Positions 1,255 to 53,839 of a stretch of DNA of 64,000 nt are shown here, one piece after another. The stretch is from a virus. The notes under the pieces were generated by a model. That model saw only the letters and a list, made by a program, of their open reading frames with translations, was not told where the DNA came from and did no database searches. The stretch spans positions 1 to 64,000 of IMG/VR virus record IMGVR_UViG_3300045988_134583, one strand, 5' to 3'. Both the position numbers and the translations under genes were made by a program. How positions within the stretch are numbered: position 1 is the first letter of the stretch; each line of letters begins with the position of its first letter.

Positions 1255-2001
1255 TCAATCAGCCGCATTGTCTGTACCTCCTAAAGCTAATTCACAAAAA
1301 ATCCCGCAATCTTGCATTATTTCGTCCGTTTGTCTACCTGCGTCAGGCGGTAATTCGTCCAAAAAGCATTGCTTTAAGCACCTGCTATTCAGCCTTCTTT
1401 CCAGCGCCGCTCTATCGACAAAAACCTCCGGGAAATCTTTCCTGATTTTATTCCAGTATCCCATGCCGCCCTTTACACATCCGATGCAGTTATTGTTTGA
1501 GTATCCAAGATCGTACATAACCGGTCTCGCAATCCCGAGCCTCGCCAGAATACCGTGGCAATCCTCTTTTGTGAGTCCGTTTTCGATGAGCGGGAATTTG
1601 TGTTCAAATTGAGGCATTGCGTCTTGTATTCTCTCCGCTCTGCCCCGCTCTCCCACGTCAAATCCCCATATATAGGTTATTTCGCAGTCTTTATGCTTTT
1701 CTTCCCATTCGGAGCGCACCCGTTTTTTTAGGTATGCCGTGCATGGTGCAAACCCTTTCACCGATCTTATGATCCCGGCCGCCATGCAGGCTTCCTCCAC
1801 ATTCGCATAAGTGTCAGACCTCAAAATCTGCACTTCTTTCCCGAGTTCTTTTTCGCAGTCACGGATAAATCGTAGGCTGTCTTTATGCTGGTCGGCAATG
1901 TCGATGTAGATATATTGATCTGTGTTTTCTTTTTCCAGCCATCCGGCGACAAAGCTTGACACGCCAGCGGAGATCCAGCACACTTGCAATCTTTTACTCA
2001 T
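1255..2001 (-). CDS. PAPS reductase / PP-loop ATP-pyrophosphatase family protein
   Basis: N-terminal WISAGVSS (SGGxDS-like PP-loop), about 250 aa, C-terminal Cys cluster NNNCIGCVKGG. Typical of phage PAPS-reductase-like proteins. Confidence 0.6.
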   Translation of the reverse strand: MSKRLQVCWISAGVSSFVAGWLEKENTDQYIYIDIADQHKDSLRFIRDCEKELGKEVQILRSDTYANVEEACMAAGIIRSVKGFAPCTAYLKKRVRSEWEEKHKDCEITYIWGFDVGERGRAERIQDAMPQFEHKFPLIENGLTKEDCHGILARLGIARPVMYDLGYSNNNCIGCVKGGMGYWNKIRKDFPEVFVDRAALERRLNSRCLKQCFLDELPPDAGRQTDEIMQDCGIFCELALGGTDNAAD

Positions 2002-9737: not shown

Positions 9738-10178
9738 ATGTATAAGATTGTTGTTATTAACCAGATGTGCGGCAGCAAGGAAAAGGGCAAGGAATATACT
9801 ATCGATCTGGAACGAAAATTTGAAGGCTATCAGGAAGGAGATCTAATCTGCTACATTGCCCCTTTTTACGGCATCCCGCTAACGCTTAATATCGCCATCC
9901 GTAAGACTGGGGAGCTAATTTTCCGCTCGTGGAGCTGGAACGGTGGAGGGAATACATACCTGCACACCGAAGAAGTAGCCGCTGGCCGTGAAAAATCCCC
10001 ATTCCAGCGCGGTTTTGTGCCGACACAAGCACAGATCGATACCGTAAGCGGATTGTTTTCCGGTCGTATCACGTTTGACGGTTTGGAGCTTCCCCCGGGA
10101 AAATCATTGCAGGAAATATGTCATGTTGACGTAAGACGTGAGGAGGAGCTTGTCGGGCATAAAATATACCTGGCGTGA
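9738..10178 (+). CDS. hypothetical protein (146 aa)
   Basis: Clean ORF, no motif recognised. Confidence 0.5.
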   Translation: MYKIVVINQMCGSKEKGKEYTIDLERKFEGYQEGDLICYIAPFYGIPLTLNIAIRKTGELIFRSWSWNGGGNTYLHTEEVAAGREKSPFQRGFVPTQAQIDTVSGLFSGRITFDGLELPPGKSLQEICHVDVRREEELVGHKIYLA

Positions 10179-10264: not shown

Positions 10265-10783
10265 ATGGAAATGTTTGAAGTCGGCAAGCCTGCCCCATGG
10301 CTCAACCTGTCCAAGGAGGGCGCATATTTTGATCTGGACGGATCCGGTTTTTTGCTGGTGTACAACTACAACTCCCCCACTCCCGGCGAGACCGCAGCGT
10401 TTCAGGCTGGCACGGCCTGTGAGTTCCGGTTTGTCCGTGTGGGCGGTGTGCTGTTCCTGCTTTCCAAGCTGGGGTCGCTACCGTGGAATGATTCCCCATT
10501 TGCTTTGCAGCTGGCCCGTACTCCTTCCCTGCCGGAGGTTCCGGAGGAAAAAGGCTATGCGGTGACTATGGTACTGCTGGACAACAAAACAAAGCTCGTG
10601 CGCGGCTTACGTCTGGTGGGGATGGGTACTCAGTTTTCGCAAAAATTAAGGGCAGAGATTTTGGAAGATGTAGGCAAGCCCATGCTGCGGGAAGAATACT
10701 TTGCGAGGGTAGCGGCGGTGCAGTCTATGTACACCACCAGCGCCCTTGTGTCCTTTGCGTCTGACCGGTATAAAATAAACTAA
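10265..10783 (+). CDS. hypothetical protein (172 aa)
   Basis: AAAAGGAGGAAG RBS. No motif recognised. Confidence 0.55.
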   Translation: MEMFEVGKPAPWLNLSKEGAYFDLDGSGFLLVYNYNSPTPGETAAFQAGTACEFRFVRVGGVLFLLSKLGSLPWNDSPFALQLARTPSLPEVPEEKGYAVTMVLLDNKTKLVRGLRLVGMGTQFSQKLRAEILEDVGKPMLREEYFARVAAVQSMYTTSALVSFASDRYKIN

Positions 10784-10794
10784 GCGCAGAGACG

Positions 10795-10829
10795 AAAAAA
10801 GAAAAGGCGGAGCCGTTAAGCTCCGCTTT
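10795..10829. terminator. bidirectional intrinsic terminator
   Basis: GCGGAGC-CGTTAA-GCTCCGC hairpin (10807-10826). Long T-run on the minus-strand side (CTTTTCTTTTTTCG), short TTT on the plus side. Confidence 0.6.
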
Positions 10830-10850
10830 GTGGCCTACCCACTAATGATA

Positions 10851-10954
10851 TTTTCAATCCACACCCATTTCTGGGTGACAAGTGCCGTTTCCGTCGTTTT
10901 GATTGTTATATCATAAACACCAAATTTCAATCCAACACCCCATTTCCAGGGGAC
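10851..10954 (-). CRISPR. type I-C-like repeat-spacer-repeat unit (mini-array or solitary repeat units); no cas genes in the window
   Basis: The minus strand reads GTCCCCTGGAAATGGGGTGTTGGATTGAAAT (10954-10924), a 44-nt spacer, then GTCACCCAGAAATGGGTGTGGATTGAAAA (10879-10851). Each repeat is GTC + GC stem-loop + TGGATTGAAA(T/A), as in I-C repeats. Confidence 0.5.
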
Positions 10955-10960
10955 ACATAG

Positions 10961-10989
10961 AGAATAACATACGTCTCTGCCTATGTCAA
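10961..10989 (-). promoter_or_regulatory. promoter driving the repeat unit
   Basis: Minus strand: TTGACA, 17-nt spacer, TATTCT. The first repeat starts about 6 nt downstream. Confidence 0.5.
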
Positions 10990-11116: not shown

Positions 11117-11752
11117 TTATTTCTTATCCCCGTACTGCCCGTAGATCGCAGCACTGACGGAAAACTCTATGCCGTACCGATCTTTCAGGTCGAACAGTTT
11201 CACCGTCTCGTTAAATATTTTATCGTATTCCGGAAGCCGCTCCGCAGGTATCTCATCCTTCGGTACGGCCTTTTCTTTGTGCAGACGCATCCCCATGGCC
11301 TTCCCTGCTACTTTGGCCGCCGCGCAGTAATGTTTCCTGTCGCCCAATCCAGCCTCGTAAAGGTATCTATTTCCCTTCTTCTGGTTCTCCCTTGACAACA
11401 TACGCAGAGCATCCGCTGCGCCCAATCCAGCGGCATTTCTAAGGGCCGGTAGGACTTCGTGGGTAATCCAGCGCTTGAAGGACTTGGCTTCGGGTTTACG
11501 GGAACCCAGGATCAGGGTATATAGGCCGGGTTCATTAACCACCGCCACGTTGGGATTGCCTCGTTGATTACCCTCATTTGAAATGAGGGTAATTATCTTC
11601 TCGTCCTCGTCCAGTCGCGAAATAGCTTGAGACGGATTCCTGATATCAAGAGCATTGCATACGTCAGCCGCTGCAAACCACGGTTCTCCATCGATCATGA
11701 CTGTTCTTACTTTTCCAAATTCAGGATGCTCAAAGATTTTGTTCGCTTGCAT
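11117..11752 (-). CDS. Bro-N domain protein (antirepressor-like)
   Basis: FEHPEFGKVRTVMIDGEPWFAAADVCNALDI ... EPGLYTLILGSRKPEAKSFKRWITHEVLPALR is the Bro-N signature. Confidence 0.8.
   Translation of the reverse strand: MQANKIFEHPEFGKVRTVMIDGEPWFAAADVCNALDIRNPSQAISRLDEDEKIITLISNEGNQRGNPNVAVVNEPGLYTLILGSRKPEAKSFKRWITHEVLPALRNAAGLGAADALRMLSRENQKKGNRYLYEAGLGDRKHYCAAAKVAGKAMGMRLHKEKAVPKDEIPAERLPEYDKIFNETVKLFDLKDRYGIEFSVSAAIYGQYGDKK
11568..11592. repeat. perfect 25-bp palindrome inside a Bro-N gene
   Basis: TTACCCTCATTT-G-AAATGAGGGTAA. Encodes TLISNEGN. Confidence 0.85.
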
Positions 11753-18446: not shown

Positions 18447-18938
18447 TCAGATTTTCGGATACTCCATGCATTTAACTTCAAGAAGGGCAAAGTCGCAGCA
18501 GCGTTGTTTTACCTTAATGTCCTGCGGGGTCAAATTCTCATCGGCTTTAAGAACTAAGGTTCTTAGATTTTTAGCCGTTTTTATTATTTCGTTTTCGTCC
18601 GCCGTGATTAACCTTTGCTGGTTTTGCAGCAGGTTTCTATAATTGATATCAGGCTCCTTCTGTATATCGAAATAAAGAAGTTCTGCGCTTGGAACGGGGA
18701 TCATATTATTGAAGTTTATCGCTCCGTATTTTCCCCCTCCTATCTTTCTAAAGTCTTTGGTGTTTTTCATTTTCAAATGCTTTTTCTTCGGTGAGGAAAG
18801 AGGTGCGTAGTATTCCAAATTTCCGATCTGCACCACAAAGCCGATGTATGGTCTCCGCTGACCCTTGTTTTCAGGAACCTTGGAATCGTAGCCCCTAAGA
18901 TAAGATACATAGGCATCTTTGATGTGGTAAAATACCAT
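18447..18938 (-). CDS. toxN: type III toxin-antitoxin system ToxN/AbiQ-family endoribonuclease toxin
   Basis: MVFYHIKDAYVSYLRGYDSKVPEN...RRPYIGFVVQIGNLEYYAPLSSPKKKH...NFNNMIPV matches the ToxN/AbiQ N-terminal signature. GGAGGGGAGA RBS. Confidence 0.9.
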   Translation of the reverse strand: MVFYHIKDAYVSYLRGYDSKVPENKGQRRPYIGFVVQIGNLEYYAPLSSPKKKHLKMKNTKDFRKIGGGKYGAINFNNMIPVPSAELLYFDIQKEPDINYRNLLQNQQRLITADENEIIKTAKNLRTLVLKADENLTPQDIKVKQRCCDFALLEVKCMEYPKI

Positions 18939-18952
18939 TCTCCCCTCCGCAT

Positions 18953-18976
18953 AAAAAAAGGGGGAATAAATCCCCC
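18953..18976 (-). terminator. intrinsic terminator between the antitoxin repeats and toxN
   Basis: Minus strand: GGGGGA-TTTAT-TCCCCC followed by TTTTTTTAT. Confidence 0.7.
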
Positions 18977-19100
18977 AACTTTTTTAGTTCCCCGCTTGTT
19001 GGTGGGGGGTCACCGCTTTTTTAGTTCCTCTCTCATGGTGGAGGCTCACCGCTTTTTCCGTTCCTCGCTTATTGGTGGAGGCTCACCGCTTTTATGTCTC
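18975..19100 (-). ncRNA. toxI: type III antitoxin RNA repeat array (ToxI/AntiQ-like), about 3.4 x 36-37 nt
   Basis: Plus-strand units begin at 18975, 19011, 19047 and 19084 (CACCGCTTTTT-AGTTCC-...-GGTGGAGGCT). Located directly upstream of toxN on the same strand. Confidence 0.75.
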
Positions 19101-37311: not shown

Positions 37312-37385
37312 TGGCAGGGATGGAAGGTATCGAACCTTCTGCATCCGGGTCAAAACCGGATATTCTCCCTTTGAACTACATCCCT
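37312..37385 (-). tRNA. tRNA-Gln (anticodon UUG), CCA encoded
   Basis: Hand-folded cloverleaf: acceptor AGGGATG/CATCCCT, D stem GTTC/GAAT, anticodon stem TCCGG/CCGGA with loop TTTTGAC, T arm GAAGG-TTCGATA-CCTTC, then G-CCA. Confidence 0.85.
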
Positions 37386-44938: not shown

Positions 44939-45014
44939 TGGCGGGAACGGTAGGTTTCGAACCTACAGCCTTCCGGTTAACAGCCGGATGCTCTACCTGT
45001 TGAGCTACGAACCC
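44939..45014 (-). tRNA. tRNA-Asn (anticodon GUU), CCA encoded, with two U-U mismatches in the acceptor stem
   Basis: Hand fold: D arm GCTC-AACAGGTA-GAGC, anticodon stem TCCGG/CCGGA with loop CTGTTAA, T arm GTAGG-TTCGAAA-CCTAC. Acceptor GGGTTCG/CGTTCCC has mismatches at pairs 4-69 and 5-68. Confidence 0.65.
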
Positions 45015-52840: not shown

Positions 52841-53839
52841 TCACCACCCGAAATCCTTTCCTGTCTCGTACTCGCTGGGGTCGATACGGGGCTTGCCCTT
52901 TTCGACCGACCTGTTCAGGTATCCCTCGAACTTTGTGGGTCTGAACAGGGTTTCCGGGCGGAAGTATTGCTCCATCTCCGTGTTCTTCCATGCATCCCAC
53001 ATTTTTTTGACGACGGTCTTGCAGTCCTCTACGCTGTACCCTTCTCCCAATCTGGCCAGCACACGATCCCGGTTTGATTTTATGTGCCGGTATTTTTTTC
53101 CGGATACGGAGTTCATGTAGTCTATTACCGTATCTGCATCCGTGTAATTCACACTTGGTTTCTCACTCGGAGTAGGAGTAAGTGTTACTTGGTTATCTCT
53201 AACAAGACTGTTACCCGGTATTGCTACTTGAGTGTCTATATCGTTACTAACTTGTGAAGGATTTAGAGATAAGTCTTTCTCGTTGTTAGAAGATATATAT
53301 ATATAATCTTTTTCTTTGGTTCTTTCTTTTTCTGCGTTACATGTAACGTTACATTCCGTTACTGTAACGTTACGTAACGTTACATCTTCCTCGGGAGTTG
53401 ATCCCTCACAAAGCTGCGCGTTTCCTTCCGGTTCCGGAAGTCCCTGCTGTTTTTTCCTCTCCCGATGCTCCTTGACCCGTATCCTTGTTTGCTCCCTGAT
53501 TCTTTCAATTTCGTCGTCTTTCTGGTATTCTTCCCATCCGTTGATCTGCAAAATGGTGTCTGGATTGGTTTGAACCATGTTCAGACTTTCAAAGGCAGCT
53601 AAAGCGAATTTCACGATGTTTTCATCAAAACCCAGCTCGTCGGCAAGCGATTTTGTGGTATACGGAACGTTCTCTGTCAGGAAGATCATCCCATTGGCGC
53701 TGCACCGGCCTGCCATTGTAAGCAGCATTATCCAAATCAGGACGATGCTGTTACCTTCCGGGAGCTTCCGCAAATACTTGATTTTGCGGTTATCAAACAT
53801 ATCGGTTGTTATTTTAACCCACTCGACTTTGCCACTCAT
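52841..53839 (-). CDS. phage replisome organizer (Phage_rep_org_N plus Phg_2220_C-like)
   Basis: N-terminal WVKITTDMFDNRKIKYLRKLPEGNSIVLIWIMLL. C-terminal YMNSVSGKKYRHIKSNRDRVLARL...FRPETLFRPTKFEGYLN. Confidence 0.85.
   Translation of the reverse strand: MSGKVEWVKITTDMFDNRKIKYLRKLPEGNSIVLIWIMLLTMAGRCSANGMIFLTENVPYTTKSLADELGFDENIVKFALAAFESLNMVQTNPDTILQINGWEEYQKDDEIERIREQTRIRVKEHRERKKQQGLPEPEGNAQLCEGSTPEEDVTLRNVTVTECNVTCNAEKERTKEKDYIYISSNNEKDLSLNPSQVSNDIDTQVAIPGNSLVRDNQVTLTPTPSEKPSVNYTDADTVIDYMNSVSGKKYRHIKSNRDRVLARLGEGYSVEDCKTVVKKMWDAWKNTEMEQYFRPETLFRPTKFEGYLNRSVEKGKPRIDPSEYETGKDFGW
53291..53385. repeat. candidate origin: AT-rich tract plus nested GTAACGTTAC palindromes inside the organizer gene
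   Basis: GTAACGTTAC at 53343, 53364 and 53374. CGTTAC half-sites at 53335 and 53357. (AT)n/T-rich tract at 53291-53333. Confidence 0.5.

Follow-up and report, generated by a model that had tools for sequence, protein, structure and literature searches.

The window analyzed here, i.e. the whole 64,000-nucleotide (nt) stretch made of positions 1 to 64,000 of the IMG/VR virus record IMGVR_UViG_3300045988_134583, harbors on its minus strand a short predicted transcription unit with two repeats that resemble those of type I-C CRISPR systems. We tentatively favor the explanation that this element is a fused pair of solitary-repeat RNA anti-CRISPR (Racr-like) modules directed against type I-C, which would act as a decoy. 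The solitary-repeat reading is based on two sister phages (our loci L109 and L110) that hold one repeat, one tail, and one terminator at the same site, and the decoy reading on the mimicry of I-C repeats, the linkage to an anti-CRISPR (Acr) gene cassette, and the lack of CRISPR-associated (Cas) genes and of a tail target in the searches described below. An earlier note on this DNA, made from its letters, had preferred a Cas-hijacking mini-array or a repeat-mimic decoy over a normal array, and the comparative data now favor the anti-CRISPR RNA branch of that proposal.

A predicted transcription unit with two minimized type I-C-like repeats

The unit is composed of the following features, in which psiR1 and psiR2 denote the two repeats, R1 and R2, and psiS1 and psiS2 the tails that follow them.

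10989-10795, minus strand: whole unit, with a sigma-70 promoter, a pair of type I-C-like repeats separated by 44 nt, and, after them, a 23-nt tail and the intrinsic terminator
10961-10989, minus strand: sigma-70-type promoter, with TTGACA at 10989-10984, a 17-nt spacer, and an extended -10 element (TG-n-TATTCT) at 10966-10961
10954-10924, minus strand: psiR1, minimized type I-C-like repeat of the alpha type, 31 nt, GTCCCCTGGAAATGGGGTGTTGGATTGAAAT
10923-10880, minus strand: inter-repeat segment, 44 nt
10901-10923, minus strand: psiS1 core, tail family B, TTGGTGTTTATGATATAACAATC, 23 nt, homologue of a 26-nt tail in the single-module units of sister phages
10880-10900, minus strand: remnant of the module-1 terminator, AAAACGACGGAAACGGC, followed by ACTT, as delimited by MAFFT alignment
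10851-10879, minus strand: psiR2, minimized I-C-like repeat of the beta type, 29 nt, GTCACCCAGAAATGGGTGTGGATTGAAAA
10828-10850, minus strand: psiS2, tail family C, 23 nt, TATCATTAGTGGGTAGGCCACAA, with a small GTGG/CCAC hairpin inside
10795-10826, minus strand: intrinsic terminator found by a terminator scan, with an 8-base-pair (bp) GC-rich stem (GCGGAGC.../...GCTCCGC) followed by CTTTTCTTTTTT

Re-reading of the window letters confirmed the coordinates, the sequences and lengths of R1 and R2 (31 and 29 nt), and the 44-nt gap given in the earlier note, and its proposal that the unit has a promoter and a terminator of its own also stood, since both were called by consensus scans and are conserved in relatives. 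The promoter matches the consensus at 10 of 12 positions and has the TG in addition, and 6 nt lie between the -10 element and the first G of R1; it is predicted to be strong and constitutive-looking, with the transcript starting at or beside the first base of repeat 1. psiR1 is made of GTC, a 5-bp stem including two wobble pairs, a GAAA tetraloop, TGT, and the 11-nt tag TGGATTGAAAT. It had been described as having a weak 4-bp stem, but when the two wobbles are counted, it forms the same 5-bp GAAA-capped stem as its relatives. psiR2 consists of GT, a 6-bp stem (CACCCA/TGGGTG), a GAAA loop, and the tag TGGATTGAAAA. The two repeats, which lie 75 nt apart, are unlike each other; psiR1 has one additional T ahead of the tag, and psiR2 a terminal A. 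The terminator hairpin (10826-10807) reads GCGGAGC TTAAC GGCTCCGC, and its T-run reaches 10795. The predicted RNA would be about 160 nt long and carry two miniature I-C repeat hairpins, each followed by an authentic 11-nt tag, TGGATTGAAAN, and a short tail, with the terminator hairpin at the end.

To score the resemblance to type I-C repeats, 13 I-C-classified repeats or solitary repeat units from the supplement of Camara-Wilpert et al. 2023 (PMC10651486) were aligned, and the resulting covariance model was applied to every position on both strands of the window. The model ranked R2 first (27.1 bits, E 3.4e-4) and R1 second (18.7 bits, E 0.04), both as full-length matches, which bears out the likeness that had been noted from the letters. 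One published I-C repeat from the same supplement, GTCACCCTCCATGCGGAGGGTGTGGATTGAAAT, is near to psiR2. Both repeats carry the signature of the I-C sequence family, i.e. a 5' GTC, a GC-rich stem-loop, and a 3' 11-nt tag, (G)TGGATTGAAA[C/T]. By itself, the 11-mer is not rare: the window has two copies versus 1.28 expected. In size, the repeats depart from the usual I-C repeat (32-33 nt, 6-8-bp stem), as they have 31 and 29 nt, 5-6-bp stems, and a GAAA tetraloop; among the repeats of the family described below, only that of L008 unit 2 has 32 nt. Nor is the unit a canonical CRISPR array with at least three near-identical repeats, variable spacers of uniform length, and cas genes: its two repeats differ, its 44-nt 'spacer' is the same in other phages, and no Cas model matched any of the 53 largest open reading frames (ORFs) of the window in PADLOC and Pfam searches, a screen that covered ORFs down to about 146 amino acids. 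The earlier statement that no cas gene is present therefore holds within this screen. A second covariance model, derived from the family itself, found no additional copy in the window, and Rfam, searched at gathering and permissive thresholds, gave as its sole match CRISPR-DR9, which was sub-threshold (15.3 bits, E 1.5). Exact R2 had no match in IMG/VR, and the exact repeats were found neither in the literature nor in its supplements.

A modular family of predicted RNA genes in gut phages

Relatives of the unit were gathered by neighbor-protein look-ups, one pattern scan of IMG/VR, and one metagenome pattern scan. Seventeen distinct unit versions were obtained from gut phages and metagenomes, and they constitute a modular family. 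Each module is composed of a promoter, a minimized I-C repeat (a GAAA-tetraloop hairpin and the tag TGGATTGAAA), a hairpin-forming tail of 23-32 nt, and a terminator. All 17 variants retain the -35 element, the TG, the -10 element, and the spacing of 6 nt to the repeat, despite three unrelated promoter-spacer sequences, and every module in the relatives closes with the same terminator family (GCGGAGC...GCTCCGC). The repeats are of three types: alpha, GTCCCCC[A/G]GAAA[T/C]GGGGTGT(T)GGATT[G/T/C]AAA[T/C]; beta, GTCACCCAGAAATGGGTGTGGATTGAAA[A/T]; and the 32-nt gamma, GTCGCCCCGGAAACGGGGTGTTGGATTGAAAC. Across 15 variants, pairing in the repeat hairpin is complete (100%). Six of these show a switch between A-U and G-C at the closing pair, and G-U intermediates exist as well; 2 of 500 shuffles reached this result. 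This pairing, together with the A-U/G-C switch, indicates selection on the RNA hairpin.

The modules occur in three arrangements. A single module is found at the site of the window's unit, between a Bro-N gene and a plus-strand cassette, in L109 and L110, and by the integrase/attP (phage attachment site) region of a different group of 40-45-kb temperate phages in L011, L013-15, L114, L115, L118, and L121. Two full tandem modules, each with its own promoter and terminator, are present in L008, L117, and L119, and predicted fused transcripts with two repeats in the window, L113, L016, L112, and L108/L116. According to SRUFinder, a repeat is 'solitary' if no other repeat, not even a partial one, is close by; this applies to L109, L110, L011, L013, L114, L115, L118, and L121, and it does not apply to the window.

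In the 40-45-kb group, the integrase gene is directly followed downstream by the RNA module (L011 7100-7400, L013 6680-6980, L121 14650-14944, minus strand), and an AT-rich stretch with repeated TGTAGTAT motifs, which are probably integrase arm sites of attP, separates the two. With the module on this side of the integrase, a lysogen would hold it at the prophage end opposite the integrase, and L111, in which host genes come right after int and no unit is found within 10 kb, is consistent with such a position. An I-C-like pair is also present in an unrelated 36-kb viral contig (L009, IMGVR_UViG_3300022697_000115, 1868-1950), where GTCGCCCTCCGGGGTGTTGGATTGAAAC and GTCGCGCCTACGGGCGTGCGGGTTGAAAC enclose 22 nt, TGTCAATTATTGGTTTTTATTA, that include the reverse complement of TTGACA; this pair is possibly a crRNA (CRISPR RNA)-like regulator with a short pseudo-spacer.

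Origin of the 44-nt 'spacer'

The window was aligned by MAFFT with the tandem units of L117 and L119 and the single unit of L110. Compared with the tandem form, it shows deletions of 4 nt and about 45 nt. The first part of the 44-nt 'spacer' is the 23-nt family B tail, the second part, AAAACGACGGAAACGGC, is the terminator minus 4 nt of its 5' stem and its whole 3' stem, and the final ACTT corresponds to the last 4 nt of the segment after the -10 element of the lost second promoter (cf. L117: TATACTTAACTT|GTCACCC). Since the 'spacer' is made of a tail, a decayed terminator, and a promoter remnant, the window 'mini-array' is, as judged from this alignment, the product of a deletion between two tandem solitary-repeat genes and not of spacer acquisition. 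The deletion-fusion also accounts for the unusual length of the 'spacer' and for the differences between the two repeats. The 44 nt can thus no longer be taken for a spacer, as the earlier note had done, and no target for it was detected in INPHARED, PLSDB, IMG/VR, or the window.

Structure and variation of the tails

Five tail families (A, B, B', C, and D) were distinguished, each of which is predicted to form its own small hairpin. Pairing in these predicted hairpins amounted to 96% in family B and 87% in family A, versus about 47% when the partners were slid out of register. The family B hairpin has 7 bp in relatives, and the psiS1 copy of the window contains one mismatch (G4/A18). Variation among tails comprises mostly A/G and C/T transitions that preserve wobble pairs in the predicted hairpins, which fits a constraint on RNA structure better than a DNA-targeting guide. 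Family A varies most in the half proximal to the protospacer-adjacent motif (PAM) and is best conserved in the 3' half. The psiS2 tail has an identical copy in L113 and no match in IMG/VR. The semi-conserved start shared by all tail families, R-T-R-G-T-G, occurs as TTGGTG, GTAGTG, ATAGTG, and ATGGTG (window 10923-10918 and from 10850; L008, L011, L016, and L117), and family C has a TAGTGG motif 6 nt deeper in the tail.

Protospacers were sought by comparing the 44-mer and tails A, B, and C with the window, INPHARED, PLSDB, and IMG/VR, and family B also with 185,579 species genomes of GTDB. These searches returned only other copies of the unit or chance-like matches. A segmented 18-base pattern of family B gave 75 chance-like matches in the genomes and 16 in IMG/VR, none of which follows an I-C tag, and the sole TTC-flanked family B match lies in a Bacteroidota metagenome-assembled genome (MAG; Proteiniphilum), with none in gut Firmicutes. 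Two candidates were discarded: a Vibrio plasmid match, the only notable one, was an iteron region alike by chance, and the early impression that family B tails differ at every sixth position alone, as expected for a Cascade guide, gave way once further variants (A15G, C19T) were included, with which the changes fit a wobble-tolerant hairpin equally well or better.

Proposed mechanism and alternative explanations

If the element is a decoy, the host Cas5d (Cas5c) would recognize each repeat mimic and cut at the base of the mini-hairpin. Cas5d would stay on the 11-nt tag, and the products might draw Cas7 and Cas8c into non-productive complexes. A hairpin located 0-8 nt past the tag, as in relatives and in psiS2 of the window, probably limits Cas7 polymerization, and the tail would then serve as a sink for the subunit that carries out single-turnover processing and binds the handle. 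Host crRNAs would thereby run short of Cas proteins, and the phage would face less interference. The two unlike repeat mimics, with alpha and beta stems, and the two unlike tails may widen the range of I-C variants covered.

Several observations speak against this explanation. Covariation lends the tail hairpins little support, with one double change, a level that 88 of 500 shuffles attain, and the psiS1 hairpin of the window is weakened by its mismatch. The tails are exactly conserved yet swapped among repeat types: tail A2, for one, stands behind a beta repeat in L016 and in L112 but behind an alpha repeat in L121. Such conservation across repeat types points to a sequence-specific function of the tail that a pure decoy would not obviously need, and the decoy offers no explanation for the R-T-R-G-T-G start. 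Furthermore, the alpha-type repeat had no exact match in the 185,579 GTDB species genomes, so that no host array turned up, and the sole host lead is a related prophage in a MAG contig of an uncultured Eubacteriales. The exact conservation with repeat swapping, the near-constant tail lengths, and the common start show that the tails matter, which keeps alive a second explanation, namely a viral array of crRNA-like regulatory RNAs (Cracr type; Liu et al., bioRxiv 10.1101/2024.10.29.618823). According to it, the two tag-plus-tail RNAs released by Cas5d processing would load into the host I-C Cascade and, by pairing over a limited PAM-proximal stretch, guide it to the cas operon promoter or to that of CreT, a CRISPR-guarding toxin, so that transcription is repressed without Cas3 cleavage; each of the two tails would serve for a different host I-C variant. 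We consider this possible, though on the doubtful side. The stackable order, in which psiR and psiS precede a terminator or another psiR, is that described for Cracr, the short tails (23-28 nt up to the terminator hairpin) are like the shortened spacers of crRNA-like RNAs, tails are kept exactly across differing repeat and promoter contexts, their first 6 nt are semi-conserved among families, and family B holds a -10-like core (TATAAT/TGATATAA). However, the searches gave no match to a host CreR/CreA or cas promoter, and the 18-base family B pattern behaved as expected by chance in the GTDB genomes. In addition, the A/G transitions of family A opposite U keep the RNA hairpin but would alter a DNA target, and A15G in family B likewise maintains the hairpin and not the pattern of a segmented guide. 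We rank the decoy above the regulatory guide because the tail changes keep RNA pairs and the PAM-proximal half of family A is the more variable one.

Two further explanations appear far less probable. A functionless relic of a host array, or a small RNA that is I-C-like by accident, would account for the shortened, non-identical repeats, the merely sub-threshold Rfam match, and the absence of a matching array from the GTDB representative genomes, but it is hard to reconcile with 17 variants in different phage lineages that conserve promoter, hairpin, tag, and terminator and show a compensatory stem change, with the linkage of units to the acr cassette, or with the significant matches given by the independent I-C model; we hold it to be very improbable. 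A genuine mini-CRISPR array, whose 44-nt spacer and perhaps 23-nt tail would target a competing phage or plasmid and so provide superinfection exclusion, seems to us very improbable. The repeat-spacer-repeat layout with its own promoter agrees with such an array, and virus-borne mini-arrays with anti-viral spacers are known (cited in PMC10651486). Nevertheless, neither the 44-mer nor the segmented tail pattern had a match beyond unit copies and chance in INPHARED, PLSDB, IMG/VR, or the window, the 'spacer' is homologous to a single-unit tail plus a decayed terminator, its 44 nt exceed the usual 34-36 nt or so, it is the same in the window, L016, and L113, unlike varying spacers, and the repeats differ from each other.

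A broader proposal, which we regard as rather unlikely, is that the hairpin-forming tails are the active part and that, in gut Clostridia phages, the units form a sub-class of their own among anti-I-C RNAs. The minimal GAAA-tetraloop repeat and its tag would load Cas5d, the terminator hairpin would stand in for the 3' repeat handle, and the tail would either block Cas7 polymerization, yielding 'spacer-less crRNA' traps, or guide a shortened Cascade to a host promoter; modules would be shuffled among repeat types, and deletion-fusion of genes in tandem would multiplex them. If the tails are indeed active, these RNAs would offer a scaffold that is natural, minimal, and built on a single repeat for the loading of I-C Cascade.

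Relation to known systems

Solitary phage I-C repeats have already been published, as have RacrIC1 as a neighbor of AcrIC5 and multiplexed crRNA-like arrays of type I-C. RacrIC1 shares its operon with a homologue of acrIC5 (Camara-Wilpert et al. 2023, PMC10651486), and the Cracr preprint reports two-spacer arrays, including nine of type I-C (Liu et al., bioRxiv 10.1101/2024.10.29.618823). Like a Racr, the window's unit is a phage-borne, intergenic, cas-less I-C repeat mimic with a promoter immediately upstream, it has relatives (L011, L012) near AcrIC5-family genes, and it would presumably occupy Cas proteins. Unlike published Racrs, it has two repeat mimics on one predicted transcript, by which the SRUFinder 'solitary' criterion excludes it; its repeats are minimized (29-31 nt, GAAA tetraloop) instead of being near-identical copies of host repeats; and, in the family, a conserved hairpin tail and a terminator belong to every module. 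With Cracrs, it shares a degenerate repeat, a short spacer-like tail, a rho-independent terminator, and multiplexed type I-C arrays with two 'spacers', often with Acr proteins alongside. However, the partial match of the tail, over at least 9 PAM-proximal nt, to the host cas or creT promoter or to CreR/CreA, which defines Cracrs, was not found in our searches, and the variation of the tails looks structure-driven rather than target-driven. The host CreA/CreR mini-CRISPRs (bioRxiv 10.1101/2023.03.10.532045) are similar in that degenerate repeats surround a short pseudo-spacer and Cascade is used without cleavage, but they reside within host CRISPR-Cas loci, whereas the window's unit lies in an anti-defense region of a phage without detected cas genes. 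Virus-borne mini-CRISPR arrays involved in inter-viral conflict are likewise viral repeat-spacer-repeat units dependent on host Cas; the unit differs from them by its non-identical repeats, its 'spacer' built from a tail and a terminator remnant, and the lack of a detectable protospacer.

What is new is the family from gut Clostridia phages, the minimized GAAA-tetraloop repeat, the shuffling of modules, and direct evidence that a phage 'repeat-spacer-repeat' can result when two genes with solitary repeats fuse. The element would add to the recently described RNA anti-CRISPRs a type I-C case that is well resolved and stems from uncultured Clostridia phages of the human gut. The series from single through tandem to fused units shows how phage 'mini-arrays' can come from solitary-repeat genes by deletion rather than by spacer acquisition, which matters for classification in surveys: tools for solitary repeats would miss the window's locus, and array finders would call it a CRISPR. 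The minimized repeat (5-6-bp stem, GAAA loop, 11-nt tag) may indicate the smallest RNA determinant still accepted by the I-C Cas5d, and it could serve I-C-based tools.

Phage and gene neighborhood

The window derives from a tailed phage of about 73.7 kb found in human gut metagenomes, and near-identical contigs of 73.6-73.8 kb are present in several ENA assemblies. Its genes encode RecT/YqaJ recombination proteins, a replisome organizer, a tape-measure protein, a holin and an endolysin, an integrase, and several anti-repressors. Among cultured phages, none has a similar region. One prophage from the L011 group lies within a contig whose flanking genes are named as 'Eubacteriales/Clostridiales bacterium' MAG proteins in NCBI, and the host is probably an uncultured Eubacteriales. 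The genes adjoining the RNA unit and the AcrIC5-domain gene of its relatives are as follows.

11117-11752, minus strand: Bro-N anti-repressor gene, upstream of the RNA unit on the same strand
10265-10783, plus strand: gene for 172 amino acids (phrog_12389), convergent with the RNA unit, last gene of the plus-strand cassette
9738-10178, plus strand: gene for 146 amino acids of the same cassette
L011 3834-4334, plus strand, and L012 112-612: gene for a 166-amino acid protein with an AcrIC5 domain and an N-terminal domain of unknown function

As is typical of Racrs, the RNA unit sits between genes of a mobile element without associated cas genes. The genes for 146 and 172 amino acids are common to L011 and L012 (about 92% identity), where the shared cassette starts with the 166-amino acid protein, whose C-terminal AcrIC5 domain was identified by Pfam (PF22147, 68.8 bits, E 4.5e-19) and by PDB entry 7YHR (E 2.7e-6). 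The AcrIC5-domain gene lies 2.7 kb from an RNA unit in a related phage, which places the element in an anti-CRISPR setting. In L013 (4204-4491), the gene is shortened to 95 amino acids and is without the AcrIC5 domain. The co-transcribed genes for 202, 106, 146, and 172 amino acids are candidate anti-defense genes, for which no Pfam or PDB match was found; this includes PDB sequence searches with the 146- and 172-amino acid proteins. Two Lar-type restriction-alleviation genes are present in this region of the window.

Inverted repeat and intergenic octamer

The unit had been described as bracketed by a 9-bp inverted repeat related to an intergenic motif family. The motifs are located as follows.

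10786-10794, plus strand, and 10972-10980, minus strand: arms of the inverted repeat GCAGAGACG, the second inside the promoter spacer
4588, 10218, 10784, 11089, 11773, and 17620, plus strand, and 33851, minus strand: copies of the octamer GCGCAGAG

The inverted repeat exists, with three copies of GCAGAGACG in the window versus 0.4 expected, but the bracketing did not hold up: the arms are not found together in L110, L013, L011, and other relatives, and the idea that they delimit a mobile unit was therefore rejected. Its arm does belong to a motif family, since the octamer GCGCAGAG, usually (T)TATGCGCAGAG, occurs seven times in the window versus 2.2 expected, a count reached by none of 100 shuffles. 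The inverted repeat does not belong to the RNA unit; it consists of one GCGCAGAG copy and a chance-like counterpart within the promoter spacer. Four copies of the octamer lie in successive intergenic gaps around the unit, whatever the gene orientation, and the motif could mark module boundaries or recombination sites or be bound by a regulator (palindromic core TGCGCA).

Other features of the window

A complete type III toxin-antitoxin locus is located at 18447-19093 (minus strand). It consists of a ToxN/AbiQ toxin gene (18447-18938; Pfam ToxN, E 9.5e-49; PADLOC AbiQ, E 9e-41) and, directly upstream, 3.1 tandem copies of a 37-nt repeat (18979-19093), as expected for a ToxI-like RNA antitoxin array. 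Near the corresponding position, L108 and L016 have a PBECR4-domain gene (PF18813), and L109 and L110 have neither. About four tandem palindromic decamers, GTAACGTTAC, at 53335-53385 within the replisome-organizer gene (52841-53839, minus strand) are likely to be iterons of the replication origin. An ORF of 248 amino acids at 1255-2001 (minus strand) gave an SspD-like match in PADLOC (E 7e-11) and no Pfam match at E 1e-5. Finally, two tRNA genes (37315-37385 and 44942-45014, minus strand; Rfam tRNA, 59.8 and 66.3 bits) lie in the block of structural genes.

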